DNA of 32,602 bases from a virus (lineage: Duplodnaviria; Heunggongvirae; Uroviricota; Caudoviricetes). This document shows positions 2,827 to 32,602 of this stretch, one piece after another; position 1 is the first letter of the stretch; every line of letters begins with the position of its first letter. Below the pieces are notes generated by a model. The model was given only the letters and a program-made list of their open reading frames with translations, made no database searches and was not told the DNA's origin. The stretch is from IMG/VR virus record IMGVR_UViG_651324052_000001, positions 1 to 32,602 of that record, one strand, 5' to 3'. Both the position numbers and the translations under genes were made by a program.

Positions 2827-2841
2827 AATAAATTTCCTCCT

Positions 2842-3210
2842 TTATAAATGCATTGTATTTAATATTAAATCTTGAAGTGCATTATCAGACACTTCTTGTC
2901 TTTTTTTTAATTCATCTATTTGATCTTGTAATGTAGGTTGTGGTTCAACTGGCGGTAATGCCTCATAAGCATATTTAATTAAGATATGAGATGGGATAGT
3001 ACCCTCATCTGTAATCTGTTCTTCAACTAACATATATGACTCCACAATAGTAAAGCCTTCTTTTGGTGGAAGACCTACTTCTGATTTGACAGGATACCAA
3101 CCTAACTTTCGCAAGATTTCATCTGATGGGTTAATAATATTTTTTCCTTCGTAATTTACAACTCCATATTGTAAAATTAATTGCTCGTTTAATATTTTCC
3201 CGTATGACAT
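2842..3210 (-). CDS. Phage tail-fibre-associated protein (XkdW-like position)
   Basis: RBS AGGAGG; C-terminal PVEPQPTLQDQIDELKK coiled segment; lies directly upstream of the CD1375-like gene. Confidence 0.6.
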   Translation of the reverse strand: MSYGKILNEQLILQYGVVNYEGKNIINPSDEILRKLGWYPVKSEVGLPPKEGFTIVESYMLVEEQITDEGTIPSHILIKYAYEALPPVEPQPTLQDQIDELKKRQEVSDNALQDLILNTMHL

Positions 3211-3222
3211 GCTTAGCCTCCT

Positions 3223-4719
3223 TTATGATTTTGTTTTGTATTCAACACTGATTCCACATGGCACTTCTCCACTATCCACCATAATATTCGTTGTGCCATT
3301 ATAACTGTGCAGATTCCTAAGTTGTGTCTGTTCTTCTTGCGAGAGTGGAACGAATTGTGATTTTTTACTTTTTAATAAAATTTCAATCGGAGTCCCATTA
3401 CCAAGCATATCTTTTAAATACTGTGAAAATACTTTTAATGATTCTGTAATGTTTTCTGATCCGCTTTCTAAAAGGCGCAAATTTTTGTCGTCCTTTAAAT
3501 AAATCGAGTTTGAATATACCCCAGCTCCAATTGTAAATGTACAGTCTTTAGATAAGCTGTGCAATGTATCCGAATAATCGTAACATTCGCAAAACGCTCT
3601 ATCAAATCTTTGGATATCGTAAACTATAGTATAGAATTGTTTATTATATATCGCCCATCGCTCTTCTCCAGTTAATGCAATTTTTTCAACATTATACAAC
3701 CACCCAATCTGTCCACTCTGCTCGACAAGTTTGTCCCATTTGGTAATTGGGCGGTCTGATGTGAGAGTGAGGGTTTGTTCAGTGTAAGGCTCATAAGGGG
3801 TCGGTTCATTTCCATATTCAACTTGTATTTCAGAATACACACCACTTTTTATATGTGTTCCTCTAACTTTTATCGTCGTTATTGGATTTTCAGAATTTAC
3901 TTTAAAAGGAAGCCCGTCTGCCATTGAATTATCATACACAGCTCTACTTGTCCCATCTTTAAAACATACGATTAATCTAGCTTGATTATTTTCTACTAAA
4001 ACTGTTGAATTGTTGCTCTTGATATAAATATTGTTTTTTATCAAACACGGTATTTCTAGCCATTGTGGTGTTTCGGAAGTAATGTCCTTTATATCAAGTA
4101 AATTCTTCCCAGTAACTTTCACATCCACTTCATACTTCTGCTTTTCTTCATTCCACTTTCCGGCGGACTTAATCTCCTGCGGATACTCTGGACTTGGGGA
4201 TGGTTTGAGTCCTGTATAGGGTTCATAAGGAGTTTTAGACGACGCCTCCTCCAACTGGATATCAAAATATTCTTGCGATAATTTAGTCGCATTCAATTCA
4301 GTATCTCCGCCAGAAAATCCGACATATATTTTTCCGGAATCGAGCGAATTTAACGTTTCCTCTGTTTTTAATTTATTAAAAATACTTTTCCGCTGAACAT
4401 CATTTGCAATATTAAAATTAATGCTTGGTTGATCTGTCTTTCCAGAAACAGATAGGCAATAATTTGTATTTTTCTTGACATCAAAAACTATAGCTGCAGT
4501 AATGTCTATTTTCGCAAGAGTTTCTGTCGTTATGTAATTCGAGACATCCGAAGCTTTTTTAATATCAAACAAATTCTTCCCTGTCGTAGTAAGTTGTTCT
4601 GTGCCGCCAATCAGTTCCAATCTTCTAAAGAAACTTTTTACACAATCCAATAAAACAACTGTTTCATTCCCAGTAGCAACATGCCACTCATAACTTGTAA
4701 TCGTTCTTCTTCTAATCAT
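3223..4719 (-). CDS. Putative tail fibre/receptor-binding protein with duplicated module
   Basis: Contains two internal repeats, TGKNLFDI...IQLEE...TPYEPYT and TGKNLLDI...IQVEYG...TPYEPYT, of a kind common in Firmicutes phage tail proteins. Confidence 0.65.
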   Translation of the reverse strand: MIRRRTITSYEWHVATGNETVVLLDCVKSFFRRLELIGGTEQLTTTGKNLFDIKKASDVSNYITTETLAKIDITAAIVFDVKKNTNYCLSVSGKTDQPSINFNIANDVQRKSIFNKLKTEETLNSLDSGKIYVGFSGGDTELNATKLSQEYFDIQLEEASSKTPYEPYTGLKPSPSPEYPQEIKSAGKWNEEKQKYEVDVKVTGKNLLDIKDITSETPQWLEIPCLIKNNIYIKSNNSTVLVENNQARLIVCFKDGTSRAVYDNSMADGLPFKVNSENPITTIKVRGTHIKSGVYSEIQVEYGNEPTPYEPYTEQTLTLTSDRPITKWDKLVEQSGQIGWLYNVEKIALTGEERWAIYNKQFYTIVYDIQRFDRAFCECYDYSDTLHSLSKDCTFTIGAGVYSNSIYLKDDKNLRLLESGSENITESLKVFSQYLKDMLGNGTPIEILLKSKKSQFVPLSQEEQTQLRNLHSYNGTTNIMVDSGEVPCGISVEYKTKS

Positions 4720-4722
4720 TTT

Positions 4723-5674
4723 TTATTTCACCATCCAATTAGCATAAGAAAGACAGTTTTCCATGATGCTTACTTCATAAATGTTATTATTTTCAATAGA
4801 CGATAAATCTGATAAAACAGTTTCAGGGAGTGAGAGAGTGGTTTTTACACTAGGATCCGTAGATGACTTGAAAAAGAAATGATATTCATTAACAATATTT
4901 TCATTTGTAATTGGTGCAAGTGTAATATTGATTGTAGAAGCATATCCTTTATCTGTATTTTCAATAACAGTAAGCGTATTTGGCTGAATAGTTACATCAC
5001 CATCCTGTACTTTTACTCTAGGGACATTAGAGGAAGTTCCATCTGCTCCGTCATTAATCTTCGCTGTTTTTGTCCCAGCAGAATCTTTAATAGTGATTGT
5101 AGTTGTTTTCCCAGACTTGGAAACCTCAACAGTAGGAGACACTCCGTTTTTACCCGGTGTTCCATTTTCACCAGTTACTTTTCCGACATCCTTAGTAGAT
5201 TCGTCAGTAAAAGTTAAAACCAAGTGCCCAGAATCATTAATTTGAGTCGATTTGATTGACAAACCATCTTTACCATTAGTGCCGTTTGCCCCCCGGATTT
5301 CCTTTGTCTCCCTTTGCACCTTTTAATGCTTGTAATTGTTCTGGAGAAAAGTCGGAATATTTAAAGGATAAATCATCTAATGATACTAAATCAAACCAAT
5401 CTTCTGTGCCTACATATCGCCATTGGATATGAGTTTGTGTCTTCTGTAATTCAATTTCTCTTCCGTCAGAACCGCCAGAAGATTTTGGCTGTAATACCCA
5501 TGTTTTGTTCTGCTCGTCATATTCATATGTACTTCCGTCCAGTTCATGTAATTTACTTCCGTTTGTGATAACTAATCCGTCAATAGTCCCAATAGGTTTT
5601 TCATCTGCCTTTAAGCATTCTATCTCTAGGACTTGACGATTGTGATAATCACCGATTTTGTTTAATGTAATCAT
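4723..5674 (-). pseudogene. Collagen-like tail protein split by a +1 frameshift in a G6 run (ORFs 5276-5674 and 4723-5319)
   Basis: Removing one G at 5289-5294 fuses the two ORFs and restores an uninterrupted Gly-X-Y series, GAKGDKGNPGANGTNGKDG. The RBS GAAGGAGG precedes 5674. Confidence 0.7.
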
Positions 5675-18814: not shown

Positions 18815-21800
18815 TTACAGTTTCTTATGCATTCCTAGTCTATGTGCTTCCTGTGTAAAATATTTTGTTACCTCTTGAATAACCTTTTTAATGCCTGGAT
18901 ATGTATCTTTATCAATACTTCCTTCAACATTAATTAAGTTATCATAATGCTGATTGATGGTAGTTCCCTTTCCGGTATCTTCTCTGACATTTCTTCGGAG
19001 AGATGCTTCCATAATCGCATTTTTATTTTCAGCAAGACTAAATAGGTTGTCTGTTAGCTTCTTAGGGACAATAGCATCGCCATATTCAAATGTTGCATAA
19101 TTGTCACTTCCACGCTTGATTCTAAGTTCTTTACCAACTTCATCAATTCTTGCAAGTTCAATTGCATTTGTGATTTTCTTCGTTCCTTTAGCATAACCAC
19201 TAATCTGATCTTGTCTTACCCACCCAAGATCACTGTAAAATCCAGGAGTTGATTGAGTACCTAGATGGATAGGGTATGGGCTATTAGGGTTCATATATGT
19301 AATATATAATTCCTCGCCAAGATGTTGATTTCCAACTGGGTTTGTTCCATACGAGTCGTTAAAATACATTCCACTATTGAATCGTACTTTGTCCCCTACT
19401 CGTGGAACGCCGTCTCCACCGCTAGAATTATTTTGCTGAGGTGGTTGTGGTTTAGGTGGTTCTGGTTTCTTTGTGACCGTAACTCCGACTGAAACGCTTA
19501 ATCCACTTCCATCAGTAGTAGATGCCGTTATCTGACATGCTCCTGGTTTGATAGCTCGAATTGTTCCCCCACTTACAGTAGCAACTCGTGTATTAGAAGA
19601 TTTCCAAGAAAGCTTCTTGTTTTTAGCATCAGTAGGTCGTATACTCGCAGTAATAGAAGTGGATTGACCTTCTTCTAATGACACTGATGTTTTATTAAGT
19701 TTCAATTCAGCAACAGGTCGATTGGATGTATTCGGAGCCTGTCCAATAATTCCTTCGATTCTATCATTGTTACTTTGTGCTGATCCGCTTTGAATAGCAC
19801 CGGTGTTTACGTTTGTAAAATCATTTGGTTTATAATTAGGGGCAGTAGTAATACTTCCATGTACTTGATTTTGTACGCCGCCGGCAGTACCCAAATTCCC
19901 AATGTTCGAATTAAAGTCACCACTCGGCTTAAAGCCTGTTCCGGCAATAATACTCTGAATTTTATCATAAGCTTGCTGATAATTATTAACAACATTTTCC
20001 AACATTTGAGAAATAACCTGCTCTTGTTTTTCAGCATTGTATGTGACTTCATTCAGAGTATCTTCAAGCTCTTTGTTTAGGTCTTCAGAAAGACCCTCAT
20101 ATCCGTCTTTTCTAACTTCATACTCACGGTCTTTCTGTGTTTGCTGTAATTGATCTTGAGCTTCTGCTAATTGAGCTTCTAATCTCTTTTTCTCTGCTTT
20201 TGCTGCTTCATTATTTACCGAATCTAAAGCAGCAATTTGTGCCTTTAATACATTAATATCTTTTGTCTGTTTCTTAAGATTACGAGAATAATCATCGTTC
20301 TTTTTCTTAATATCAAGCAGTTTTTCATATTTTTCAATGGATTTCTGAGCCATATCATTTTCAGCTTCTAATTGCTTACGATATAAGTCAACAATCTCAT
20401 TCTTGTAATCTTCAACAACACCTACAGAATCTCGGATAGAATCCAAGAATTCCTTTTGTTGTTCTTTATATTCACTTGTTGAAATGTTTCCGTTCTTTAA
20501 ATCTTCATCAAGTTTCTTTAATGCTTCATTATAATTTTTGATCTGCTGTTTTGCAGCATTCATGCCTTGAGAGATAAGTGCGAGATTAGTAATACCTTCA
20601 ATAGTTAATCCGCCGTTTTGACCAACAAATGCATCTGAATGAAGCATGCTTCTAAAATCATCAGTTTCTGTAATCAAATCTTTTAAGGCTTCTTGTCCTT
20701 CAAAGAAAGGATTCCATCTAACTTCCCAGATTTTATTTTTCAGTTCTTCAATGTTTTCGCTGGTACTGTAAATCTCATCATCAAGTTTTGCAATCTCATC
20801 AGCAATTTCTTGATACCTCTTAGACCCAACATCATACAATCCTTGCTCTTTTAAGAGTTCTTGACGTTTATTGAAATTAGCCTGAATAAGAGCATTAGCA
20901 TTGTCAAGTTGCTTCTTAAGATCTGCCTCACTAACCTTATCACCTTTTGCTTCGGTTAAGCTTGTGCCGTTTTCTAACCTCTGAGCTGTACGGTCAAGCA
21001 TATCAATAGTATGCTGTAACCGTGTAAGTTTCAGATTTCGGAACTCGTCTTCAAGTTCTACTAATCCAATTTGTGCATCAACGGCAGCTTCTTTCAGCTC
21101 ATTAAGTTTTGCCTGTGCTTCATACCACTCTTTAGATCCCTCAGACATGTATCCTTGAGACATAAGTTTTGATATTTCTGCTTCATAGTCCTTAATTTGC
21201 TGTTGTGTATTTTCTGCTAATTCTTGTTGATTTTTGATAGACTCTTTAATAGAAGCTTCTTGTTCCTTCCCATAAGCAGAATGACCAAGTTCTTCCCAAA
21301 GTTCACGTTGTTTTTCAAGATAGCCGTTTGCTGTATCCTGTTGATTATTCAGCATTTCCCAATATTCTTCAACGTTATCAAGAGCCTTTTGAACTAATTC
21401 GTCCTGCTTTTCAAGAAGTTCATCGTACTGAGAATTACAATCTTCTAATTTATCATAGTAATCTTGATAAATTTGAATTAACTTTTTGGTTTCTTCGTCA
21501 TAACCAGAAATATCAAATGAACCATTTTTAATCTGATTATAAATCGTAGGATCAAGTCCCATTTGAGATTCTAAACTTGTAAGATGCTCACGATATTTAT
21601 TAATAGCAGTGGAAGTATTAGAAAGATATTCTTGATTCTTTGCTAATGCTTCATACATCTTAATCTGCTTGTCTGGAAGTTTAGCAATACGTTCCATTTG
21701 ACTCATGAGATGGTCAAACTGACGTTCCATTGCCTTAAACACACGTTCAATCCAGTCAATCTGATCAGAGAGTGATTCTGATAATTTCTCAGCCGCTTCT

Positions 21801-24800
21801 GATGTATCTGTTGCTGCTTTTGAAAGATTTTCTGCGGCGTTGTTTACGGAAGAAGAGCCAGATGAACCTCCACCTGATAGATTGCCGTTGCCAGTATTTC
21901 CAGTCACCCAACTTCCAGAAGAGAATGCCGTTCCGTTAGATAGTGCATGTCCACGACCTCCGCCAGATGTGACCTTTCCATTTGCAAACAACTCAGCTGT
22001 TTGTTTGTGGTTGAAGACGATATCACCCTTCTTCAATGGGACAAACTGAGCGCCACCTTCAATTAAATGCCAACGTCCGTCTCTAACAATTAATTCGTTA
22101 CCAAGTTCATTTACAAGAGAAGTTTGATTTTTAGAAACACCCCAGTCACCACTTGCTTTTGCGTTACCAGAGTAGTGATACAAAGTAGTAGTTCCATTTG
22201 CGTTGGCGGTTCCATTTGCCACAGCTCCTTCTTCCTTGACATTGTTGGTAACAGAAGTAATGTATACAGTTTTACTTTGTACAGAAGAGATGGCAGAAGC
22301 AAGAGCTGATACATCGCCTGTTCCAGATGTAGTGGCAGATACAGTTACAGATTTACTTTGTACAGAATCAATAGCTGCTTTTAATGCTTTTACCAAATCC
22401 GTTCCAGTCACATTTGCTTTTGCATCAACAGTTTTTCCTTCAAGTGTTCCTAACGAAGCCTTTAATGCTCCGATGAGTTCCAATCCAGTTACATTTGCCA
22501 TTACGGATACAGATTTTGCTTCATTGCTCAATCCATTTATGGATGACTTGATACCATCAAGTTCGTCTTTTCCAGTCACACTTACAGAAACAGCTAATTC
22601 TTTATCATCAAGAGAAGACAGCATGGTTTCTAAAGCAGTAATGTCGTCTTTCCCTGCAACATTCACTGTAATAGTCACATCTTTGTCTTGTATGTCTTCA
22701 AGATGTAGGTCTTCTTTTTCAAGTTCAACAGGTATTTTAATCTCATTAGACATTAATTGAGAGGCAATCTCATCAGTACTTAATCCTTCAATATTTAATT
22801 CTGCCTTAATCTCTGGTGATATATTTTCAAGCTCGGCTTTTGCAGTTTCCACCATACCTAATGCTTCATTAAGTTTGCTTGTGTCGAAATTTGGAGTAGA
22901 AGCAATTATATCAGCATTAGTAACAGCGTCATAATAATTCTGAAAAAGTTGTATTGCATTTTGTAATTCCGCACTTGCATTACTTGTGTCAACATTTAAA
23001 ATAGCAGGCTCATTTAGTTCGGCGCGTTTCTGAATTAAAGTAGAAAGAACTTGCTGTGCAGATTCCAATTGAGAAGCATCACAGTTAATTGAACCATCAG
23101 AGTTATATAAAGAATTAATATATTCTTTTGTTTTTTCAATCTCATTATATATAGAAGAATCTGTTTTGGCATTTACGTCAATATCAACTTTCCCACCAGT
23201 AGCTTCTCTAATTGCGTCTGCTGCTAGAGTAGCTTTAGCAATAGCTTCGTCTAAATTACTTGTTTCTACTGACACAGAGGAAGGGTTTTCCAGAAGTTTC
23301 TTACGTTCTATGGCTTCTTCGAGTAATGTATTCAGATTTTCAACTTCTGCACTATCAACACCAAATTTAGTTTCCGATTCATCACGAGCCTTCGTTAATT
23401 CTGCGATTCGAGCGTCTAATCCATTAGCATCTAATTTAGACGTATCTACATCTAAATCAATTTCCGGAAAATCAGATCCAGCTTCTTTTAACTGTTGAAG
23501 ATTGGTTTTTGCTTTTTCAGCTTGAGCAGATAAGTCAGCCATTTTCTGAGCATAATTAGAATCGCCACTCGTATCACCAACACGAATTGTGTCATCGTAT
23601 TCAGTCATAGCCCTGTACAATGATTGAATAGCCTCTTTACTAATTCCTAATCTTTTTGCAATTTCTTCGTCTGCTCCAGTTTGAAATTCAAGAACACCAT
23701 TTTCTAACTCTTTTACCCATCCTAATCCCTCATTATCGGAAAGAGTTTTCATGTCTGTAACAAAGTTATCAAGACCTTGCTTAGTTCCGGTAAAGTATTT
23801 ATCAATTACAGGAAGAGATGCTTCGTATGCGGCGACAACTTCTTTCATAGAAGCAGTAGCTAAATCTTGATTAGAATAGAATTGCGATACAGCTCTAAAT
23901 TCCTCAGTGTTATATCGACCTTCTTTATAAAGCTCTTGTCCTCGTTCGCGCATTGTTTCAGAAACTGTGCGGAACATATCGCCTTCTTCGCCATTAGATT
24001 GTGCGCTCATCCATTTTTGATAAGCAGAAGTAGCACCATCATAGGCAGCCGATAATTGATTTACTGCTTCAAGTTGACGACTTAATCCGTCTATAACAAG
24101 TTGAGAATTATTATATTCAGAAGAACCTTTATCATAATTATTCTGTTCTGCATATGCTTTATTCAACTGCTCTTGAAGTGATTGTTGTTTTTCTGCAAAC
24201 TTCCCTTTTGTTATAGCTTCTTGTTGTGCTTGCAATTGGCGTAATGCTTCTCTGTTCAAATGAACACCGTTTGCGGTTTTCTCAAATAAAGTTGCAGGAT
24301 CATAACCTTCCAAATCTTCATATGCGGATGCTATTGCACCAATATCGCCTTCGAGTTCTCCTGTTTCTTCATTGAGAGAAACACCTAGCCCCTTGCCATT
24401 ATAACTATTTGCTAATACGGCATTTAAAGATTCTACAGAATTAATTTGTGATACAACATCTTTCTGGAAATCTGAAAAGCTTTCTTCAAGTTTAGTTAGA
24501 CCAGCGTCTTGACTGGCAAGTGCTGAAATTTCTTCTCTTAGAGTTTCGACACTAACACCTGCTTCATTACAAGCAACAACTAATTCAGGAAATCCCTTGG
24601 TGATTTCATCAACAGATAATTTGTCTCCACTTCTAAAAGCATCTACTAATTTCTGTTGTGCTTGAGCAAAATCATTATTTTCCCAAATTTTAGATAATGC
24701 TTTAGCTGCTTTGGCTTGAGGATTTTCTCTGGTGTAATCATCAATCACTTTTGTAATGTCATTGAATTTCTTTAGTTCTTTTGAAGACAACCCTTCTTTT

Positions 24801-25876
24801 GCAACACCAGTTGTTTCATCCATGAAATTCTTCCTAAGTTCTTGAAGTGATTTCATATTTTCAGAAACAGCATCCTCATACATTTTCATATCTGACTTAA
24901 GAGTATCTATTTCTCCGTCAATTTCAGATTTTCTTTTCTTGTCTTTTTTGGAAGTTCCTAAACCGTCACGTTCATTTAAAAGTTCTTCTCTTGTGTCTTT
25001 TAATTCATTTAATGCTTTGACTTCATTTTGAGTAGCTGTTAGAATATCCGTCTTTTCATAACCAGTATTTTCTACCCCTTGTGCAGCATTTGCGCCAGCA
25101 GCCATTCGATCAATCCAGTTATCAGACTCTAATAGTTCCTGTTGAGATGACTTTGTTGTTAAATCGTAAGTTTCTCTTTTATTTAGAGAATCCATTGCAG
25201 AACCAACAGCTTCTTTAGCTTCTTTATCTGCAATTTCTTTCTTTAAATCTCTCTGACGTTCTAGTTCAGCATTTTGTAATTTTAGTTGTGAAAGTTCAGA
25301 TTGCTCTACGAGATTTAAAGTCCCTTTGGATTCGAGTTCTGAAATTCTCGTAGATGTTGTTTCGATTTCAGAGTTTAAGGATTTTACTTCTGCCATTGTA
25401 GAAGCATAAGCTGATTGTGCTTCTTTTGCTTCTTCAACAGATCTCTTCATTTCAGTAGCTTTTAGATAAGTTAACCATGCTGCACCACCGACAACAGCTG
25501 CGCCGCCGATATACGGAATGGCTTTCTTAAATACCGTTAGTAATCCCTTTCCTGCATTCTTGAAGCCTTCCATAGCTTTTTGTCCGGTAGACATTCCATC
25601 TCCAAGACCGTCTAATGTTTTCTTTAATTCGCTTACACCTTCGGCTGCATCGCCAGCGCCTTCAGTAATATCTGCAACTGTATCTGCCCAACCAGTCATG
25701 TTTAATGCATCTTTTGCAAAATCCTTCGAAACACCGGAATGTTTAAGAATTTTCCCAACTTCTTCTAAATCTTTCGCATCGTCTAACAAATTTACCATTT
25801 TAGCAAATTTATTATTATAATCTAGTCCATTAAAATCTTTTAATAGTTCAGAGTATTTCCCTATCTCTTTTAATGA
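18815..25876 (-). CDS. Tail tape measure protein, 3' exon (C-terminal ~2350 aa, with Big_2-like and SH3-like domains near the C-terminus)
   Basis: Very long helical Ala/Lys/Glu-rich ORF upstream of Dit/Tal. It has LVNELGNELI...GDIVFNHKQT and GYAKGT motifs and an Ig-like LNKTSVSL...WKSSNTRVATV region. There is no RBS before ATG 25798, and the frame stays open upstream (SLKEIGKYSELLKDFNGLDYNNKFAK) to a TAG at 25904-25906. The 5' boundary is inferred. Confidence 0.85.
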   Translation of the reverse strand, partial: SLKEIGKYSELLKDFNGLDYNNKFAKMVNLLDDAKDLEEVGKILKHSGVSKDFAKDALNMTGWADTVADITEGAGDAAEGVSELKKTLDGLGDGMSTGQKAMEGFKNAGKGLLTVFKKAIPYIGGAAVVGGAAWLTYLKATEMKRSVEEAKEAQSAYASTMAEVKSLNSEIETTSTRISELESKGTLNLVEQSELSQLKLQNAELERQRDLKKEIADKEAKEAVGSAMDSLNKRETYDLTTKSSQQELLESDNWIDRMAAGANAAQGVENTGYEKTDILTATQNEVKALNELKDTREELLNERDGLGTSKKDKKRKSEIDGEIDTLKSDMKMYEDAVSENMKSLQELRKNFMDETTGVAKEGLSSKELKKFNDITKVIDDYTRENPQAKAAKALSKIWENNDFAQAQQKLVDAFRSGDKLSVDEITKGFPELVVACNEAGVSVETLREEISALASQDAGLTKLEESFSDFQKDVVSQINSVESLNAVLANSYNGKGLGVSLNEETGELEGDIGAIASAYEDLEGYDPATLFEKTANGVHLNREALRQLQAQQEAITKGKFAEKQQSLQEQLNKAYAEQNNYDKGSSEYNNSQLVIDGLSRQLEAVNQLSAAYDGATSAYQKWMSAQSNGEEGDMFRTVSETMRERGQELYKEGRYNTEEFRAVSQFYSNQDLATASMKEVVAAYEASLPVIDKYFTGTKQGLDNFVTDMKTLSDNEGLGWVKELENGVLEFQTGADEEIAKRLGISKEAIQSLYRAMTEYDDTIRVGDTSGDSNYAQKMADLSAQAEKAKTNLQQLKEAGSDFPEIDLDVDTSKLDANGLDARIAELTKARDESETKFGVDSAEVENLNTLLEEAIERKKLLENPSSVSVETSNLDEAIAKATLAADAIREATGGKVDIDVNAKTDSSIYNEIEKTKEYINSLYNSDGSINCDASQLESAQQVLSTLIQKRAELNEPAILNVDTSNASAELQNAIQLFQNYYDAVTNADIIASTPNFDTSKLNEALGMVETAKAELENISPEIKAELNIEGLSTDEIASQLMSNEIKIPVELEKEDLHLEDIQDKDVTITVNVAGKDDITALETMLSSLDDKELAVSVSVTGKDELDGIKSSINGLSNEAKSVSVMANVTGLELIGALKASLGTLEGKTVDAKANVTGTDLVKALKAAIDSVQSKSVTVSATTSGTGDVSALASAISSVQSKTVYITSVTNNVKEEGAVANGTANANGTTTLYHYSGNAKASGDWGVSKNQTSLVNELGNELIVRDGRWHLIEGGAQFVPLKKGDIVFNHKQTAELFANGKVTSGGGRGHALSNGTAFSSGSWVTGNTGNGNLSGGGSSGSSSVNNAAENLSKAATDTSEAAEKLSESLSDQIDWIERVFKAMERQFDHLMSQMERIAKLPDKQIKMYEALAKNQEYLSNTSTAINKYREHLTSLESQMGLDPTIYNQIKNGSFDISGYDEETKKLIQIYQDYYDKLEDCNSQYDELLEKQDELVQKALDNVEEYWEMLNNQQDTANGYLEKQRELWEELGHSAYGKEQEASIKESIKNQQELAENTQQQIKDYEAEISKLMSQGYMSEGSKEWYEAQAKLNELKEAAVDAQIGLVELEDEFRNLKLTRLQHTIDMLDRTAQRLENGTSLTEAKGDKVSEADLKKQLDNANALIQANFNKRQELLKEQGLYDVGSKRYQEIADEIAKLDDEIYSTSENIEELKNKIWEVRWNPFFEGQEALKDLITETDDFRSMLHSDAFVGQNGGLTIEGITNLALISQGMNAAKQQIKNYNEALKKLDEDLKNGNISTSEYKEQQKEFLDSIRDSVGVVEDYKNEIVDLYRKQLEAENDMAQKSIEKYEKLLDIKKKNDDYSRNLKKQTKDINVLKAQIAALDSVNNEAAKAEKKRLEAQLAEAQDQLQQTQKDREYEVRKDGYEGLSEDLNKELEDTLNEVTYNAEKQEQVISQMLENVVNNYQQAYDKIQSIIAGTGFKPSGDFNSNIGNLGTAGGVQNQVHGSITTAPNYKPNDFTNVNTGAIQSGSAQSNNDRIEGIIGQAPNTSNRPVAELKLNKTSVSLEEGQSTSITASIRPTDAKNKKLSWKSSNTRVATVSGGTIRAIKPGACQITASTTDGSGLSVSVGVTVTKKPEPPKPQPPQQNNSSGGDGVPRVGDKVRFNSGMYFNDSYGTNPVGNQHLGEELYITYMNPNSPYPIHLGTQSTPGFYSDLGWVRQDQISGYAKGTKKITNAIELARIDEVGKELRIKRGSDNYATFEYGDAIVPKKLTDNLFSLAENKNAIMEASLRRNVREDTGKGTTINQHYDNLINVEGSIDKDTYPGIKKVIQEVTKYFTQEAHRLGMHKKL

Positions 25877-25881
25877 CTGTG

Positions 25882-25890
25882 TGGTATAAT
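25882..25890 (+). promoter_or_regulatory. Extended -10 promoter for the Zn-ribbon gene
   Basis: TG-G-TATAAT lies ~48 bp upstream of ATG 25938, with an AGGAGG RBS in between. Confidence 0.6.
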
Positions 25891-25937
25891 ATAAAAAATG
25901 TTTCTATCATTTAATATATATTTTAGGAGGGATTTTA

Positions 25938-26420
25938 ATGGCATTATTAATTTGTTCTGAATGCAAAAAAGTTGTATCTGATAAAGCGGGAATATGTCCC
26001 CACTGTGGATGTCCAATAACAATAAAGGATGACTTGAATAGGCAATACACAAAAGTTAATGGCGTTGAATATGATGTAACAGAAATTGTTAAAATAATTC
26101 TCAATGCAGAGACATACAAAGAGTGGACTCCAGCCTCTGATATGATCAGAAATATGATGGACATTTCTCCGATAAAACTTATTAATCCAATACGTGAACT
26201 TGGAAGAGCACCGGAAGAAATTAATTGCGAAACATTATCCGACTTCTCAAAAAGACAACGAGCTATTCAGGCATCCAAGATTCACTGTCCAAACTGTAGG
26301 TCAACAGATGTAAAACGAATATCCGCAACTGAGAGAGCAGCGTCTGTGATTGGTTTTGGTCTACTTTCAAAGAAAATCAACAAAACATATAAGTGTAATA
26401 AATGTAAGTATACTTGGTAA
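25938..26420 (+). CDS. Double zinc-ribbon domain protein
   Basis: N-terminal CSEC...CPHCG and C-terminal CPNC...CNKC motifs; RBS AGGAGG. Confidence 0.8.
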   Translation: MALLICSECKKVVSDKAGICPHCGCPITIKDDLNRQYTKVNGVEYDVTEIVKIILNAETYKEWTPASDMIRNMMDISPIKLINPIRELGRAPEEINCETLSDFSKRQRAIQASKIHCPNCRSTDVKRISATERAASVIGFGLLSKKINKTYKCNKCKYTW

Positions 26421-26442
26421 AATAACAGTAAATTTGCTTTCC

Positions 26443-26471
26443 TTGACATTGTGTAATTGTAATGTTACAGT
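26443..26471 (+). promoter_or_regulatory. Putative sigma-A promoter for the YHYH/Ig gene
   Basis: TTGACA-17 bp-TACAGT with a TG extension. Confidence 0.5.
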
Positions 26472-26531
26472 TATAGAAGTGTGAGCGGTTTCTATAAGAG
26501 ATATAAACTACTTATAAGAGAGGGAAAACAA

Positions 26532-27914
26532 ATGAAAAAAAGAAAATGTATTATTTGTGCAGTAATATTATCTATGTTACTGCCTATTTCTGTGCACGCA
26601 CATCCAGGCAGAACAGATTCTAGTGGTGGTCATCATGACTATAAAAATCAAAGTGGACTAGGAAGCTATCATTATCATCATGGTATGGGTGCACATTTAC
26701 ATCCGGGAGGAGTTTGTCCTTATGGTGGTGGCGCGGTTCCATCATACACACCGCCAGTTCGTCCGAAACCAACTATTACTGTAAACAATCCACCCACCCA
26801 GCTTTATGTTGGCGAAAGTTCTGGATTAAACATCACTTTAAGCAATGTATCACAAAATACTCTTAGTGTCACATCAAGCAATCCACATGTCGTAAGAGTA
26901 AATCCAGATAATACATTAACTGCTGTAGGATCAGGAGATACTACAGTTACGGTAAGTGCATCTGGCGCAGATAATCAAGCATTTGTAGTAACAGTTAACA
27001 CAATCCCAGTAGAATCAATAGTTATTAAAAATTCAACAAACAGACTTCAATTAAATAGTACTATAGTATTTGAAACAGAAATATTACCCAGCAACGCCAC
27101 TGATAAGACAGTTACATGGAAATCAGAAAATGAAGAAATAGCTGTTATAACTGATAAAGGATCTGTAGTAGGTAAGAATCCTGGCAAAACCAAAATTACC
27201 TGCGAAGCAGTTAGTGGCGTTAAAACGGAAATAGAATTAGAGATATATGAAATATTTCCTGAATCAATAGAACTTGAAGCAAACAAAATTGAATTAGAAT
27301 GTTTAGACACATATGATTTAGATGTCAAAATTATGCCAGAAACAGCAAATAATAAAAATTATAGCATAGAAAGCGAGAACAATGATGTCGCTAAAATAGA
27401 AGATAAAAAGATTAAAGCTGTATCAGACGGCATAACTAACATAATAGTTAAAACAGACAATGGTATTGAACGCAAAGTACCTATTAAAGTTTATCATGTG
27501 CCAACAGATAACATACATATAGATGACTCAAAAACAAATTATTTTATGGATTTATTCTCTATTAAGCTATTAGATAAAAGAGAAAGTATTAGCCTGGAAT
27601 CTGTAGTTTATCCAAGTTATGCCACTTTTAAAAATCCAGAGTGGAAGAGTAGTGATGAAAATATTATTGATATTAGAAATAATAAACCATATATTGAAAG
27701 TACGGGTTGTGTAACTCTTACATCTACGACAATCGATAAAGTTTCTGATAGTATAACAATTTTCATCATAGATCGAGATATTGCTTTGTTGATAATTTTT
27801 GGAGTAACACTGATCCTTCTGTTTGTCAATGGATGGATTATTTATAAATACAAAAATAATATTATCGCCATAAAAAATAAATTAATGTCCAAAATTAAAC
27901 ATACAGATGTCTAA
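26532..27914 (+). CDS. Surface protein: signal peptide, YHYH-like domain, tandem Big_2 Ig-like repeats, C-terminal TM anchor
   Basis: MKKRK...VHA signal peptide; HPGRTDSSGGHH...YHYHHG; repeats such as PSNATDKTVTWKSEN; hydrophobic C-terminal helix followed by basic residues. The RBS GAGGG favours start 26532. Confidence 0.8.
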   Translation: MKKRKCIICAVILSMLLPISVHAHPGRTDSSGGHHDYKNQSGLGSYHYHHGMGAHLHPGGVCPYGGGAVPSYTPPVRPKPTITVNNPPTQLYVGESSGLNITLSNVSQNTLSVTSSNPHVVRVNPDNTLTAVGSGDTTVTVSASGADNQAFVVTVNTIPVESIVIKNSTNRLQLNSTIVFETEILPSNATDKTVTWKSENEEIAVITDKGSVVGKNPGKTKITCEAVSGVKTEIELEIYEIFPESIELEANKIELECLDTYDLDVKIMPETANNKNYSIESENNDVAKIEDKKIKAVSDGITNIIVKTDNGIERKVPIKVYHVPTDNIHIDDSKTNYFMDLFSIKLLDKRESISLESVVYPSYATFKNPEWKSSDENIIDIRNNKPYIESTGCVTLTSTTIDKVSDSITIFIIDRDIALLIIFGVTLILLFVNGWIIYKYKNNIIAIKNKLMSKIKHTDV

Positions 27915-28001
27915 ACTGTAAATATAAATGGTAGTGGAAGTGTAATGTCTGTAAGAGATATTTTTAGGATTGCGGAAAAGTAATTAGAAATAGAGATGTT
28001 T

Positions 28002-28265
28002 CTATAGCATATCTGTTTCTAATTCGCGTATTCTGCGCTTTAATTCATCACACGATTTGTGCTGTTTCCCAAATTTATATTTGTATGAATAATTGGTTTT
28101 TTGATGACCAAAATTATCTTCGATTTGCTTATTAAAGTCGTTTTGAATTTTATTTAATTCATGCAAATTATTTTTGTTTAATGAATATAAGAATATAACC
28201 ATTCTACATTTTGTAAAATGTAAGAGTGCACGAATTCTGTAATAGAATAACTGAAAAAAATTCAA
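28002..28265 (-). CDS. Hypothetical protein, divergent partner of HEXXH gene 1
   Basis: TTG start preceded by the RBS AAGGTGGTGA. Confidence 0.5.
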   Translation of the reverse strand: MNFFQLFYYRIRALLHFTKCRMVIFLYSLNKNNLHELNKIQNDFNKQIEDNFGHQKTNYSYKYKFGKQHKSCDELKRRIRELETDML

Positions 28266-28294
28266 TTTAATTCACCACCTTTGGAGGATAAATA

Positions 28295-29014
28295 ATGATT
28301 ACTGAAGAAATAAAACTTGAAACAAAATTACGTTGGTTGGAATATTGTAAAGAAATTAAAAATATCCCGCCAATACAAGAGATAGAGCTTCTTGATAAAA
28401 ATGATTCTTCACACGCAAGATTTAAATCAATAGATTTGTATAATCAAAAATATATCTTATATGTTCAAAAGGAGATATATGAATATACTGATGTTTCGAC
28501 AAGATCTATATTATTCCATGAATTTACTCATCTTGCGGACGCAATAAAATATAAAGATAAAAAATATGAAGTGTTCCTTAATATAATGTCTTCTTATTCA
28601 GAATATCATGCATCATATATTGAAATGCTTCAAATTCTAAAATGTTGTGACAGTAAATTAATAAACAAAGAATCAGAAGCTATTTACAGAGCTGGCTGTC
28701 TTACCTTAGAATCCCTTATGTCTCAATCATACACAGCAGCGATAAAATGTTTTGAAAAAATTGATGAGTCTTTTAATGGAGTACATGAGTTTTATTACTA
28801 TTTAGGATATAGAAAGGCTTTACAAAGATATAGTTTGGAATTTAATTTTAATTTATTAGATTTTAATTCATTGTATATGGTTTATATTAAAAATATTTTT
28901 GATTTTATTGAGTCAAATGAAATTACAAAATTAGCAGATGAACACTCAAAATTATTACACTCTATTGATAAGGAGATAGAATCAAATAAAATTTTGAATC
29001 ATTTTAATATTTGA
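28295..29014 (+). CDS. Putative Zn metallopeptidase (HEXXH), paralog 1
   Basis: RSILFHEFTH motif plus downstream SEYHASYIEM (candidate third-ligand Glu); RBS GGAGG. Confidence 0.7.
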   Translation: MITEEIKLETKLRWLEYCKEIKNIPPIQEIELLDKNDSSHARFKSIDLYNQKYILYVQKEIYEYTDVSTRSILFHEFTHLADAIKYKDKKYEVFLNIMSSYSEYHASYIEMLQILKCCDSKLINKESEAIYRAGCLTLESLMSQSYTAAIKCFEKIDESFNGVHEFYYYLGYRKALQRYSLEFNFNLLDFNSLYMVYIKNIFDFIESNEITKLADEHSKLLHSIDKEIESNKILNHFNI

Positions 29015-29329
29015 AAGTTGCTGTTTTTTTATGTGGCTACTTGGTTCTGCCAGGCAAAGCTGCAGACATCAATGACAACGACAAAGGTAAAGAGGAGAAG
29101 AACGGAGTCTATCTTATAATTCCACATCGCCCAAAACTTTTTCTTTAAACTTTTTTATGATTGAATAACATTCAGATTGGCTTACATCAGTACCGCAATA
29201 TAGCGTGTTGATTAGACACTTTACAATATAATTTTCTTTTTCTTCACGCTGCAAATAATTATCAACGGAATTATTGTTAAACATATTAACTGTTTGATTC
29301 TGAAAGGGAACTAATTTAAATATGAAAAA

Positions 29330-29641
29330 TTATTTGTCAATTAATCGTTTTAATAATTTTTCATGTTCTCGACAAATAATATCAAGATCAAATTCGGGCG
29401 AAATATCATCTGGGAGTTTTTCTACGGTTTTGTCTGGATTGATTTGATATACATCACCGTTCCAAATAAATTGCTTTTCAGATATGTACAGGCAATTAGA
29501 TTCAAAAGAGTAGTTTTTAGGGTATGTTAAAAAATTCATCGATTTTTTTAACTCTTGCTGCATTTTTATATCGTCAATTTGTAATTTGATTTTATATAAA
29601 TCCATAATTATTTGTTTTTCTTCACTTGTTAATTTAATAAT
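29330..29641 (-). CDS. Hypothetical protein, divergent partner of HEXXH gene 2 (ATT start at 29641 or ATG at 29605)
   Basis: The RBS AAGGTGGTGA is followed by an in-frame ATT at the same spacing as the TTG of the first module. Confidence 0.5.
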   Translation of the reverse strand: MIKLTSEEKQIIMDLYKIKLQIDDIKMQQELKKSMNFLTYPKNYSFESNCLYISEKQFIWNGDVYQINPDKTVEKLPDDISPEFDLDIICREHEKLLKRLIDK

Positions 29642-29668
29642 TTTAATTCACCACCTTAAGGAGATTTT

Positions 29669-30430
29669 ATGAAAGTATTAGATATTTTTTCATTGTATTT
29701 AGAATATCAAAAGGAATATCCTAGAAATGATTATCCAGAATTATCGGTAGACAACCTTGTGTATGTTCATGATGTTGATTTTTGGTTTCAATTTAATTCG
29801 TCTAAATTATATGATGATCAATACGAATTACAAGTCAATATGGAAGCGTTTGCATTGAATGATACTTATTTAAGAAGTATCTTGTATCATGAGTTTACGC
29901 ATATATATGATTCTCTTACGTTTAAAAATAAACCAATGGATGAGTATGAAAAAAATATGTCACACTACTCAGAAATACATGCATCTTACATTGAAATGAG
30001 AAAAAGAATAAGGGAAATATCTCATTCTTTATATATACAGGATGAAAAAAATGAAATTCTAATCCATATTTATCTACAAAAAGAGTATTCAACCGTTAAA
30101 ACAACATGGTCAAATTATATAGAATATAATCCGGAAACCATTACAGATAAAATGAAACGGCTCTGTTATTTTGTTGGACATTATAAATATCTAAAAGATC
30201 ATTATAATATACCTGAATTTAAAATTGTATCTCCTTATGCTGAAGAAATATACGGTATTATAAATGAATACTCTAACGGAATGTATAATCTAAACAAATA
30301 CTTTAATAAAATTATTCAAAAGTCAAAAGATTACAAAAACAGTCAATACCTTGATAAATTGCAATCAATTTTAAATGAAGATATAATAAACCAAGATGCA
30401 TTATTGGGATTTTTCACGAACAAGATATGA
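29669..30430 (+). CDS. Putative Zn metallopeptidase (HEXXH), paralog 2
   Basis: RSILYHEFTH and SEIHASYIEM motifs; RBS AAGGAG. Confidence 0.7.
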   Translation: MKVLDIFSLYLEYQKEYPRNDYPELSVDNLVYVHDVDFWFQFNSSKLYDDQYELQVNMEAFALNDTYLRSILYHEFTHIYDSLTFKNKPMDEYEKNMSHYSEIHASYIEMRKRIREISHSLYIQDEKNEILIHIYLQKEYSTVKTTWSNYIEYNPETITDKMKRLCYFVGHYKYLKDHYNIPEFKIVSPYAEEIYGIINEYSNGMYNLNKYFNKIIQKSKDYKNSQYLDKLQSILNEDIINQDALLGFFTNKI

Positions 30431-30578
30431 TCAGCAAATGTGGATCAACACTAATTATAACTGACGACAAACCGTGTTGTTATACATCGCTTGCCTTTCA
30501 AAAAATCATTCCTTTCATAATAGATGATTATTTCAGGCACAAAAATAGAGCAGTAGTAGTTACTGCTCTTGATTAAAA

Positions 30579-30959
30579 TTAACCATTTTGTTCCAAATCT
30601 AATAATCTTCGATTTATTTTTTTCATTAAAAAATCGTATTTTTGTGTATCGCATTGATAATTTTCCTGTGATTCACCATTATCTAATAGATAAGAATACT
30701 CCTCTATTAAAACCGAATTACTTTTGAATGTTTTAGGTCTTTCGTTAGATGCAATTATATGAGCCACTGAATCTGCAAGCAAGTCATCAAATACTTTTAT
30801 ATTTTTTCTATATTTTTTTTCTATAAGTTTTCGACGTTCTTCAAAGTCCTTTTCAATCATTAATTCTTCTTCAGATGTAATTTCAATAATTTGAATATTT
30901 TTTCGAAATGACAAGTCAACCATTTCACATTTTATTTTTTTCATTAATTTATCCCTCAT
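30579..30959 (-). CDS. Hypothetical protein, coupled to the upstream 2TM protein
   Basis: Its start overlaps the stop of the upstream gene. An alternative start at ATG 30944 follows GAGGG. Confidence 0.55.
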   Translation of the reverse strand: MRDKLMKKIKCEMVDLSFRKNIQIIEITSEEELMIEKDFEERRKLIEKKYRKNIKVFDDLLADSVAHIIASNERPKTFKSNSVLIEEYSYLLDNGESQENYQCDTQKYDFLMKKINRRLLDLEQNG

Positions 30960-31888
30960 TATTCATTTGGATTTACATAAAGTCCTTTATTAATTTTGTC
31001 TGCCAAAACAATCAAATTAGAATATGGAACAATGTTTTCTTCTGCAAATTTACGTAATTTTATACGATCAGTGTTTATAATATAATTATACTTGGTAATC
31101 ACTTGAAAGATTCCAAGCATTTTATTACTAGTGCAATACACTGGAATAGCAATGTATTGTGTATATTTCGATAAATCAGTATCTATACTAACTTTATTGA
31201 AGATTCGCTGGATCTCTTCATTATTAATAGCTATTTCAATGTCAGATAGATTGTCTTTAATTAAGTTAGCATAATGATACGAACTTTTTTCTAAAGGTTC
31301 TATATTTTTACACGATCGAGGGCGCGTCGATGAAGGATTGGAATGTGCTACCATATGTATCCATTTCTCCCTGTTTTCATCTTCCCAATAATATATAAAA
31401 CCAACGGATATTTTGCTGGTATCATCAATTCCTGTATAAGTTATAATCATATCCCTACAATAACTACAGATATCATCAAAAATTTTATATCTATCCCAAC
31501 ATTTTTTCGGAGCTTTACCATTTTGAATCACTTCATTGGCAAAAGAGTTGATATTTAAAGCCCATTTCTCTGAAATGGAAGAAAACATGCCAACAGAGTA
31601 AGAACATGTATTTTTATATCTATCTAATTCATTCAAAATTAAATTTAATTGGTTGTTTTTTTGATTCATTTCATATATAATTTCGCTTGCCTTACTCTCT
31701 TGATTTCCATAAAATAATACTGCAATAATTAAACAAAACATTAAAAATACAGAAACAGTACAAAATACTGCTTTCAAAACATTATTATTTACAAAAGAAA
31801 TAAAAATACCAATGCAGGAAATAATAGTTGGTATACTTATTAATATTGTATTCTTAAACCAAGGTTTTTGGTAGAATTTATCTTCCAT
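30959..31888 (-). CDS. Membrane protein: two N-terminal TM helices, coiled coil, GAF-like domain
   Basis: Two hydrophobic segments in the first 60 aa. The C-terminal YIAIPV...LGIFQV resembles the terminal strands of a GAF domain. Confidence 0.6.
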   Translation of the reverse strand: MEDKFYQKPWFKNTILISIPTIISCIGIFISFVNNNVLKAVFCTVSVFLMFCLIIAVLFYGNQESKASEIIYEMNQKNNQLNLILNELDRYKNTCSYSVGMFSSISEKWALNINSFANEVIQNGKAPKKCWDRYKIFDDICSYCRDMIITYTGIDDTSKISVGFIYYWEDENREKWIHMVAHSNPSSTRPRSCKNIEPLEKSSYHYANLIKDNLSDIEIAINNEEIQRIFNKVSIDTDLSKYTQYIAIPVYCTSNKMLGIFQVITKYNYIINTDRIKLRKFAEENIVPYSNLIVLADKINKGLYVNPNE

Positions 31889-31982
31889 GCAATATATCCC
31901 CCATATATTTATTTATATAGTATACACCATATTTCGACAAATTACTATCAGAACATTAGTTTGATTTGTCGAATAAATAGGA

Positions 31983-32602
31983 GATAGTAAACATTTTTCT
32001 CATATCACTGGAACCAAACAGCATTAGAGATTTGCTGCTAGAAAATAATCCGAAGATTATATTGGTTACGGCACTCCAGATTTTGCCGGAAGTTTTAAAA
32101 GCATATATCTATGCCACACATGGTACTGACAGTCTATGTTAAGTCAGATTGCCAGTAACGTATTACTAAAACTTTTCTAAATCGCAATACGCACTATGCC
32201 TTAAAAGAAGAATAGCATTTATGGCAGTTATTCTCTCCGAGGATGGGTATGTCTCTGGGGATACTATCTGTTAATGACCTTCATTATATACGCCAAAAGA
32301 ATTAACTCAGATATTGTCCTGCTCGTTGTCCTTTATATTCTTACTTAGATGTCTTAACATTTTCATATTAATATTCATATAAGAACAAATCATTTATTTG
32401 GGTTTCCCTACCTACTGTTATGGGTATGATTTGCAAAATAAGATTTCAAGCATTTACTCCTCTATGGATCAAAACCATAATAAATATATGGAACTCACCA
32501 TGCTCCGCCACTTGATATTACAATGCCATAATATTGTAAATCTTATGTCGGCTAGACTCATATATAATATAGGAATATTTTACTTATTTTATTATATATG
32601 TA
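31983..32602 (-). ncRNA. Group I intron-like ribozyme core (atypical P7)
   Basis: Minus-strand motifs: P AAAUGCUUGAAA (32455-32444), Q GGACAACGAGCAGGA (32331-32317), R CCAGAGACAUAC (32258-32247) and S AAGGCAUAGUGC (32202-32191). Helices: P4 UGCUUG/CGAGCA, P3 GAGGA/UCCUC, P6 GGA/UCC, P6a UAUCUG/CAGAUA, P8 AGAAUA/UAUUCU and P9 CGUAUUGC/GUAAUACG. There is also a cUUCGg hairpin at 32045-32060. Confidence 0.75.

Follow-up and report, generated by a model that had tools for sequence, protein, structure and literature searches.

A putative group I-type intron with passenger genes in a prophage tape-measure gene, and a candidate short helix beside its distant terminal G

In the 32,602-nt window (i.e., the whole stretch of DNA that was analyzed), which comes from an SPbeta-like prophage of gut Clostridia, the tape-measure gene on the minus strand lies in two parts with other genes between them, and this raises the question of how the parts are rejoined and, if by splicing, how a 3' splice site is found across kilobases of unrelated sequence. 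An earlier note on this DNA had pointed to two inverted repeats linking a ribozyme to the distant junction, and proposed that these helices dock the 3' end onto the core, with G25877 as either the omega-G at the 3' splice site or part of a ribosome landing region. Here, we compare the locus with its relatives (designated L002, L003, etc.).

The junction is marked by protein conservation. The N-terminal part of the tape measure (P0001) ends at 32620, while the C-terminal part (18815..25876, minus strand) lies in a frame open from 25903, within which coding-type (protein-like) conservation sets in exactly at 25876 in all relatives aligned, right behind a G that every lineage examined has before its first conserved codon. 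The in-frame codons UCA UUA AAA GAG follow G25877 on the minus strand, as had been read before. Moreover, the uninterrupted homologue P0004 (2,522 aa) is collinear with both halves and aligns straight across the junction (FVKNFK-ELAEIG against FFKNLD/SLKEIG), which, together with the onset of coding conservation, bears out the predicted start of the 3' exon at 25876. The gap between the halves measures 2.2-6.7 kb in every relative with both ends mapped. The tape-measure gene thus appears, from these comparisons, to be split by a group I-type intron of 6,746 nt carrying passenger genes, whose first nucleotide on the minus strand would be genome position 32622, 20 nt outside the window, and whose last would be G25877. 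The 5' splice site is placed after U32623, the predicted ligated junction is ...CUUAGAU joined to UCAUUAAAAG..., and translation of the spliced mRNA would go on with SLKEIGKYSELL. Among the sequencing runs that contain the locus, none was recorded as RNA, and four that were aligned to it gave DNA contigs lacking a joint at this junction, which speaks neither for nor against splicing.

The first 530-630 nt of the intron form the putative ribozyme (31995..32602, minus strand, and on to genome position 32622), and some 6 kb of exchangeable cargo genes come after it. This block is 97-99.9% identical to that of close relatives and 67-75% identical to that of other lineages. Its predicted internal guide sequence, AUGA-GUCUAG (32552..32561, minus strand), pairs with both exon ends. 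In P1, the 5' exon end UUAGAU pairs with GUCUAG (32557-32552), with U.G at the splice site, and compensatory changes occur in L014 (UUAGGU/GCCUAG) and L031 (UUGGAU/GUCCAG). In P10, the guide AUGA pairs with UCAU, the four exon bases after omega-G; the corresponding pairs are UCAC/GUGG (compensatory) in L008, UCAU/GUGA in L014 and AAAUCG/CGAUUU in the different ribozyme of L006. The U.G in P1, the terminal G and P10 are all features of group I introns. P2, P3 (GAGGA/UCCUC), P4 (GCUUG/CGAGC), P6, P8, P9, P9.1 and P9.2 also stand in group I order and covary; no P5 could be assigned, and no drawing in standard form was obtained for P7 and the guanosine-binding pair. The hairpin P9.2 (GGCAUA-GAUA-UAUGCU; 32100..32115, minus strand) carries compensatory changes in all lineages (CAUA/UAUG, CGUA/UACG, CGC/GCG, ACAU/AUGU). 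A pairing UUACUGG/CCAGUGA enclosing the 3' domain, a neighboring idea of the earlier reader, was replaced by a local hairpin, UACUG...CAGUA, which covaries in every lineage.

Since G is terminal in every lineage with a known 3' end and P10 covaries, G25877 most probably is the omega-G and the 3' splice site. Its alternative role in ribosome landing found no support, and ribosomal bypass of 6.7 kb was dropped because the junction is accounted for by P1 and P10. Searches with the Rfam 15 group I and group II models gave no match, neither at the gathering score nor at E <= 10, in the window, the extended locus or two relatives, and these models likewise missed a 1.2-kb insert with an endonuclease-like ORF in L004 and L008. 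A tRNA search found none, deposited phage genomes gave no blastn match to the ribozyme block, phages gave no tblastn match to residues 1-400 of the C-terminal part, and this genome holds no second ribozyme copy.

The cargo comprises eight ORFs, four of them antisense. Beside the 3' splice site lies the most conserved cargo gene, an antisense zinc-ribbon ORF of 160 aa (25938..26420, plus strand) with homologous ORFs at the same place in relatives. The other seven (26481..31888, both strands) form a variable cargo shared with relatives in a mosaic manner, in which no homing endonuclease, transposase or known defense family was found; the only Pfam domains recognized among the eight ORFs were zinc-ribbon and Big_2. 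Upstream of the zinc-ribbon ORF and facing the cargo, we noted a promoter-like extended -10 element, TGTGTGGTATAAT (25878..25890, plus strand). Its TGnTATAAT is kept in most lineages, with n freely G, A, C or T; in L081, TATAAT stands 17 nt from the splice site, lacking the TG. In a consensus scan, promoter-like sites were not enriched (55 versus 47.7 expected from shuffles), and four terminator-like sites were found versus 2.0 expected, among them a hairpin on the sense strand (30547..30569, minus) that matches the consensus only and lies in a linker common to several relatives.

Both inverted repeats of the earlier note are present, at the positions and with the matches claimed. In helix 1, 25894-25908 (AAAAATGTTTCTATC) and 31983-31998 (GATAGTAAACATTTTT) form 15 bp with one bulged base; in helix 2, 25878-25888 (TGTGTGGTATA) is complementary to 32110-32120 (TATGCCACACA) at 10 of 11 positions, the odd one being C.A on the minus-strand RNA (G.U if the plus strand is transcribed). 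We evaluated both with RNAduplex against the 663-nt 5' block, using dinucleotide shuffles and native segments as controls. For helix 1 (-13.3 kcal/mol), equally good duplexes had a frequency of 0.6% among shuffles and 5.2% among native cargo 15-mers; for helix 2 (-11.2 kcal/mol), the frequencies were 17% and, among native 11-mers, 4.5%; and for the entire 31-nt tail, they were 0.1% and, among native windows, 1.2%. Hence, the complementarities are real and weakly to moderately better than chance, but not clearly beyond it in this single genome. Energy-based (MFE) folds of cargo-deleted constructs were inconsistent between relatives: helix 2 formed only in the core-only construct of this genome and was absent in relatives, while helix 1 grew to 23 bp when its 5' arm was included. 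Since the single-genome statistics are not clearly beyond chance, the decision rests on the comparison of relatives.

For helix 2, this comparison separates an inner from an outer part. The 3' strand of the inner part, CCACACA on the RNA (25878..25884, minus strand), abuts omega-G, and its 5' strand, UGUGUGG (32114..32120, minus strand), is predicted to be single-stranded between the hairpins P9.1 and P9.2 and belongs to a conserved ACCAWGUGU motif. An unbiased scan across some 960 alignment columns gave the column of 32120 as the best partner of the 7 nt preceding G; with the clade of the window excluded, this site again ranked first at lengths 5, 6 and 7 (scores 0.96, 0.90 and 0.86). Counted from G, the run comprises 7 pairs in the own lineage, 5 in L008, 6-7 in L022/L023/L053, 6 in L081 and 3 each in L014 and L075, i.e., 3-7 pairs abutting G, as P9.0 would have on its 3' strand, in six of six lineages. 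In the own, L022 and L081 lineages it is the sole site of that length (for L081, among 606 positions). Next to G, the own clade has U-A and the others have A-U, and the second pair is G-C, G.U or A-U. Over the six lineages, double changes were seen at two positions and a compatible change at one, and two are broken (position 6, A.C in L008 and L014; position 3, U.U in L014). In L075, the tail has become AUAUCAU while the arm is still AUGUGUG, so the arm must also be kept for another reason; moreover, since independent lineages are few and both arms are conserved sequences, the recurrence is partly inheritance. The outer four pairs did not survive the comparison: their 5'-arm GCAUA is instead part of the P9.2 hairpin. 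The 5' strand also lies not in J7/9, where P9.0 is defined, but behind P9 and P9.1, some 75 nt past the S element. Hence, the proposed docking by helix 2 can be maintained for 5-7 bp abutting G, with some compensatory change, and the view of this core as a P9.0-like docking helix is partly supported.

Helix 1 behaves differently. Its 5' arm (AAAAAUGUUUACUAUC; 31983..31998, minus strand) is made of the first bases of the cargo cassette carrying a 309-aa ORF, and its 3' arm (GAUAGAAACAUUUUU; 25894..25908, minus strand) is, on the plus strand, the leader of the antisense zinc-ribbon gene. The 3' arm, as GAUAGAAAC, is kept in the own clade, L008 and L014 and missing from the L022, L075 and L081 lineages, and has no conserved partner within the ribozyme. 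Conservation with L002-L005 stops at 31995, inside the 5' arm, which occurs only with its cassette, even behind a different ribozyme whose 3' end offers no partner, and is lacking from near-identical introns bearing other cargo. In L069, a C to A change in the 5' arm faces an unchanged 3' arm, leaving an uncompensated A.G mismatch, and no equivalent stem enclosing the ORFs was found in L002-L005, L008, L014, L022 or L023. These comparisons argue against helix 1 as a conserved docking element and indicate an inverted repeat that belongs to a single cargo cassette and lies outside the conserved mechanism, although it may still help to hold the intron ends together in this phage. As a candidate repeated regulatory motif, TGTTTCTATC occurs four times versus 0.5 expected, but the contexts of the other sites are unrelated, and this idea was rejected.

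Taken together, we consider it probable, with some reserve, that this is a group I-type intron whose 3' site is set by omega-G, P10 and a G-proximal P9.0-like helix. The site would most likely be recognized in the usual group I way, with CCACACA (25884-25878) pairing with UGUGUGG (32120-32114) directly upstream of the terminal G and looping out, in the role of P9.0, the P9.2 hairpin, the 3' peripheral domain and the whole cargo. Only the 5-7 pairs beside G would be used, and the outer four would give way to P9.2. A duplex adjoining omega-G defines the second splicing step (PMC11417360). We infer splicing itself, and a contribution of helix 2 to it, from these comparisons. It is possible, if rather doubtful, that the intron is real and both complementarities are by-products, the 3' splice site being chosen by omega-G and P10 alone; helix 1 would then be a cassette-borne repeat and helix 2 an inherited coincidence of separately conserved segments, its 3' strand kept as the TRTGnTATAAT promoter of the zinc-ribbon gene and its 5' strand as a motif for tertiary contacts within the ribozyme. 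In most lineages, the 3' strand of helix 2 is indeed such a promoter-like element on the opposite strand, which alone could conserve CACA, and the variable position of the tail coincides exactly with the free n of TGnTATAAT. The single-genome frequencies of helix 2, the ACCAWGUGU arm left unchanged in L075 where only 3 bp of the tail match, an ACACA that might also pair with this arm and lies in the loop of the hairpin next behind the 5' splice site, and the bond of helix 1 to one cassette fit this reading as well. It leaves aside, however, the two positions beside omega-G and outside TRTG that change with the arm (U-A to A-U; G-C to A-U), and L081, whose box is clear of the tail and which nonetheless retains the pairing as a G-abutting 6-bp run unique for its length; moreover, the homologous site came first in the scan in lineages that had not been used to form the idea.

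Two further readings question whether one RNA, or any splicing, is involved. Late transcription might stop inside the cargo and the 3' part be made separately, with helix 2, and in this phage helix 1, assembling both RNAs for trans-splicing. The terminator-like hairpin at 30569-30547, the antisense half of the cargo ORFs with a promoter-like element before the zinc-ribbon ORF at the 3' end, and the 23-bp extension of helix 1 in the cargo-deleted fold would suit such an arrangement, which we nevertheless hold to be very unlikely: no sense-strand promoter for a separate 3' piece was identified, helix 1 is absent from relatives with equally long cargo, and the terminator is no more than a consensus match (four such sites versus 2.0 expected). 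In addition, the late genes of SPbeta, the model relative, form one operon transcribed by the highly processive phage polymerase YonO (PMC5467207), and L081 encodes upstream of its late genes a protein with a Pfam RdRP-family match (PF05183), possibly YonO-like. That nothing is spliced, so that two separate tape-measure genes flank a gene island and the 600-nt block is some other structured RNA, seems highly improbable to us. Gene callers annotate two proteins, Rfam finds no intron and an in-frame ATG stands at 25798, but this ATG is not preceded by a Shine-Dalgarno-like sequence here and is missing from most relatives (L003, L004, L005 and L008 among them), no conserved start codon of the downstream half was found among relatives, and frame conservation starts 26 codons further upstream, right after the conserved G. 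The guide sequence that pairs and covaries with both exon ends, the helix order of group I and the uninterrupted homologues spanning the junction likewise speak against two independent genes. We also regard as unlikely that 25878-25890 is read twice, as the RNA strand docking the terminal G across 6.6 kb and as an inward DNA promoter for cargo expression in the lysogen, which in its strongest form would make this a natural trans-splicing phage group I intron assembled from separately made RNAs; if true, cargo expression would be physically coupled to the rejoining of a tail gene.

Returning to the favored reading, the G-proximal helix, if real, would be the means by which a group I ribozyme finds its 3' splice site despite kilobases of exchanged genes in P9, and would explain how prophages use an essential structural gene as a safe harbor for accessory genes. 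As a design rule, a short helix abutting omega-G together with P10 would be enough, in agreement with recent RNA-circularization engineering, and the non-conservation of the longer, AT-rich helix 1 keeps that helix out of family models.

Docking of the 3' end is known from P9.0 and from IStrons, and the G-proximal pairing is a variation on it. As in P9.0 of group I introns, the 3' strand consists of a few bases right before the terminal G and acts with P10, and the helix closes a loop with peripheral P9 hairpins and inserted coding sequence; unlike P9.0, whose 5' strand directly follows P7, the 5' strand here comes about 75 nt further on, the helix reaches 7 bp rather than 2-3, the loop spans 2-6.6 kb with several genes on both strands, and the 3' strand doubles in most lineages as a promoter-like element of the opposite strand. 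The 3' junction of the phage T4 nrdD (sunY) intron, too, reportedly lies far behind its ORF and must pair back to the core. In IStrons (CdISt1, BcISt1 and relatives), the ribozyme is likewise 5', with P9.0, P9.1 and P9.2, and foreign genes are inserted after P9.2 (PMC4227781); a predicted inverted-repeat stem, AU-rich in group B, encloses their ORFs (PMC4227781), which helix 1 resembles, except that here the stem is not conserved. IStron cargo, however, is an IS200/IS605 or IS607 element with transposase genes, whereas Pfam found no transposase family in the eight cargo ORFs here; IStrons measure 0.48-2.6 kb (PMC4227781) versus 2.2-6.7 kb here, and the present insertion sits at one fixed codon of a phage gene. 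The introns TMP-IVS1/2/3 of Bacillus cereus-group prophages share the tape-measure host gene, in-frame insertion, a stop codon at or soon after the intron start and P1 and P10 adapted to the site (PMC2504315). They contain no HEG, HEG remnants or one HEG (only TMP-IVS3a in KBAB4; PMC2504315), whereas here a 530-630-nt ribozyme not recognized by Rfam models is accompanied by up to 6 kb of unrelated genes. Finally, the giant ND5-717 group I introns of corallimorpharian mitochondria (18-19 kb) similarly harbor many functional genes in one peripheral loop (PMC6545197); in the present case, the host is a bacteriophage and the cargo lies in the P9 region.

The virus record is 161,307 bases long, and the window spans bases 1 to 32,602 of it; since a 1.87-Mb bacterial contig contains an identical stretch, this DNA is a prophage. 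The tape-measure gene is split on the minus strand: the C-terminal part is an ORF of 2,327 codons (25798 to 18815, with the frame open upstream to 25903), and the N-terminal ORF, P0001 (647 aa, TP901-type tape-measure core), ends at genome position 32620, just past the window. They are separated by approximately 620 nt free of ORFs and by some 6 kb of cargo, whose eight ORFs are distributed over the two strands; zinc-ribbon and Big_2 were the only recognisable domains in these ORFs, and no endonuclease, transposase or defence families were found. Relatives gathered from IMG/VR, species genomes, metagenomes and public assemblies (loci numbered L) have the same split, with introns of 2,140 to 6,746 nt. 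The ATG at 25798 is absent from L003, L004, L005 and L008, thus leaving the downstream half there without an independent start. Moreover, gap-free tape measure proteins of 1,900-2,700 aa exist, and the uninterrupted 2,522-aa homologue P0004 is collinear with both halves, FVKNFK-ELAEIG being aligned to FFKNLD/SLKEIG (the slash marks the split).

Comparison of the relatives supports well, short of demonstration, a real intron with its 3' end at G25877, the 3' splice site proposed in the earlier note. The 5' exon ends in ...CUUAGAU or a variant in all relatives, and P1 pairs GUCUAG (32557-32552) with UUAGAU, the last exon base forming a U.G wobble; compensatory changes are seen in L014 (UUAGGU/GCCUAG) and L031 (UUGGAU/GUCCAG). 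Immediately 5' of GUCUAG in the guide, AUGA (32561-32558) fits UCAU at the start of exon 2 as P10, which in L008 becomes GUGG/UCAC. At the 3' end, nucleotide-type conservation (...UAUUAUACCACACAG) stops at a terminal G in every lineage, and protein-type conservation (S-L/F-K-E/D-I-G-K...) begins with the very next base. The predicted spliced junction would be ...AAAAACUUAGAU/UCAUUAAAAGAG... In L075, whose lineage is of the Hespellia type, the last base of an ATG coincides with the terminal G of the intron (CAUG/UCG; 4234-4242); gene callers therefore begin the downstream half precisely at the splice site. This ATG is not preceded by a ribosome-binding site.

No Rfam model matched the window, the extended locus or two relatives. 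In a consensus fold of twelve diverse ribozymes, P2, P3, P4, P6, P8, P9, P9.1 and P9.2 nevertheless follow one another as in group I introns and show numerous compensatory changes; P7 is non-standard in form. On the minus strand, the P2 loop AUGGCA (32526-32531) is complementary to the P8 loop UGCCAU (32215-32220), and the two change together (GGCG with CGCC in L014), which makes them a candidate loop-loop contact. The first intron hairpin (genome 32622-32601, mostly just past the window end) also covaries (AACCU/AGGUU, AACCC/GGGUU, CCCC/GGGG); its loop carries ACACA-like bases complementary to GUGU of the helix 2 arm, and hence is a possible competing partner for that arm.

The two long-range complementarities described earlier, helix 1 (25894-25908 with 31983-31998) and helix 2 (25878-25888 with 32110-32120), were both located in the sequence. 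They had been thought unlikely by chance; when both were scored against the 663-nt 5' block, with dinucleotide shuffles and native windows as controls, neither was clearly beyond chance within one genome. Shuffles equalled helix 2 in 17% of cases and native 11-mers in 4.5%; helix 1 was equalled by 0.6% of shuffles, yet by 5% of native cargo 15-mers.

Across lineages, we scanned the aligned 5' block for the best partner of the 7 nt preceding the terminal G. Column 32120 ranked first of approximately 960, and remained first when the window's own clade was omitted (scores of 0.96, 0.90 and 0.86 for lengths 5, 6 and 7). Counted from the G, and including two far more divergent lineages recovered later with both ends, the run comprises 7 pairs in the own lineage, 5 in L008, 6-7 in L022, L023 and L053, 6 in L081, 3 in L014 (7 with one bulge allowed) and 3 in L075; in the own lineage and in those of L022 and L081, no other site gives an equally long run. 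At the pair adjoining the G, the own clade has U-A and the other lineages A-U; the second pair occurs as G-C, G.U or A-U, and two lineages have A.C at position 6. Part of this signal reflects inheritance, given the small number of lineages and the conservation of both arms; in L075 the arm is unchanged despite a different tail. Furthermore, the tail doubles as a TRTGnTATAAT-like element on the opposite strand in most lineages (L081 being an exception), and UAUA, the partner of GCAUA in the tail, is its -10 box. GCAUA of the 5' arm forms the local hairpin P9.2 (32100-32115), which covaries in all lineages. The G-proximal pairs of helix 2 recur, but its outer four pairs find no support, GCAUA being taken by P9.2.

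The role of helix 1 as a conserved docking element did not survive the comparison, and by its distribution the helix is not conserved in the intron family. Conservation with four near-identical ribozymes (L002-L005) breaks off within the 5' arm, at 31995; past this point those introns carry other cargo, and nothing similarly placed in them is complementary to the conserved GAUAGAAAC tail. The 5' arm is found only with the cassette bearing a 309/323-aa ORF, and stays with it even where the ribozyme ahead of the cassette is a different one, with no GAUAGAAAC at its 3' end. Opposite the G of GAUAG, the arm's C is replaced by U in L065 and L066, preserving a G.U pair, and by A in L069, where the unchanged partner leaves an uncompensated mismatch. 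When this genome's sequence was folded without the cargo, helix 1 grew to 23 bp and competed with helix 2; it may be an extra clamp in this phage, a role proposed for the inverted-repeat stems of IStrons (PMC4227781).

Parts of these introns seem to be exchanged among relatives. A different core occupies the same exon site in L006 (13440-13990), L067 (3180-3730) and L070-L074, with exon ...CCUAGAU, guide AAAUCG-GUCUA and exon 2 CGAUUU following ...CAAAAG in the L006 type. Since both ribozyme types have their last ~105 nt in common (window 32099-31995, 99% identical), the 3' domain seems to be a module moving between ribozymes. In L073 (6626-7140), an L005-type intron 3' end (GATAGAAAC...CACG) and exon 2 start form a 171-aa ORF, itself cargo of an intron with the other ribozyme type; this is either a recombination relic or, possibly, an alternative 3' splice site. 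In the metagenome contig L042 (9180-9400), an own-type ribozyme is followed by a 3' end of the L006 type, and the exon start there, CGAUUU, is no match for AUGA, the P10 guide of the own type; either the contig is a chimera assembled at low coverage, or it is a natural recombinant, whose splicing would be impaired. Within the cargo, short linkers at 30495-30585 (including a terminator-like hairpin, 30569-30547, minus strand) and 27891-27937 are 88-97% identical in relatives with different flanking genes, and look like recombination joints between cassettes. Two paralogous plus-strand ORFs with a HEFTH motif (28295-29014 and 29669-30430; 239 and 253 aa), each beside a small divergent ORF, matched no Pfam or PADLOC family; a related 221-aa ORF in L004 has HEHIH instead.

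In relatives, the N-terminal tape-measure part bears further inserts. One of 1.2 kb (L004:11254-12461; also L008, L022 and L023) interrupts the same codon in all four (residue 418 of P0001), encodes a 271-aa zinc-finger/endonuclease-like ORF and is absent from the window's genome; it is probably a second, conventional intron, and was not detected by Rfam in L004 and L008, the two relatives run. A third, of ~0.5 kb, lies near residue 548 in L022 and L024.

We propose that the late transcript would pass through the whole intron and that the ribozyme would fold at its 5' end. After the first step, the short helix 32120-32114/25884-25878, together with P10, would deliver the terminal G, and exon joining would yield a tape measure of ~2,970 aa. 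SPbeta late genes form one operon, and the phage polymerase that transcribes it, YonO, is highly processive (PMC5467207); a duplex next to omega-G defines the second splicing step, whatever its sequence (PMC11417360). Upstream of its late structural genes, L081 has an 838-aa gene (2719-5235) with a Pfam RdRP-family match (PF05183), near genes with YomU/V/W-type Pfam matches; it is possibly YonO-like, and would then be consistent with late transcription as in SPbeta.

Group I introns have been described in tape measure genes of prophages (PMC2504315), IStrons begin with the ribozyme, carry foreign genes after P9.2 and have a stem that encloses these (PMC4227781), and coral mitochondria harbour giant multi-gene group I introns (PMC6545197). 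The helix at omega-G is thus a variation on a known pairing type, in an intron that is unusually large and gene-rich.
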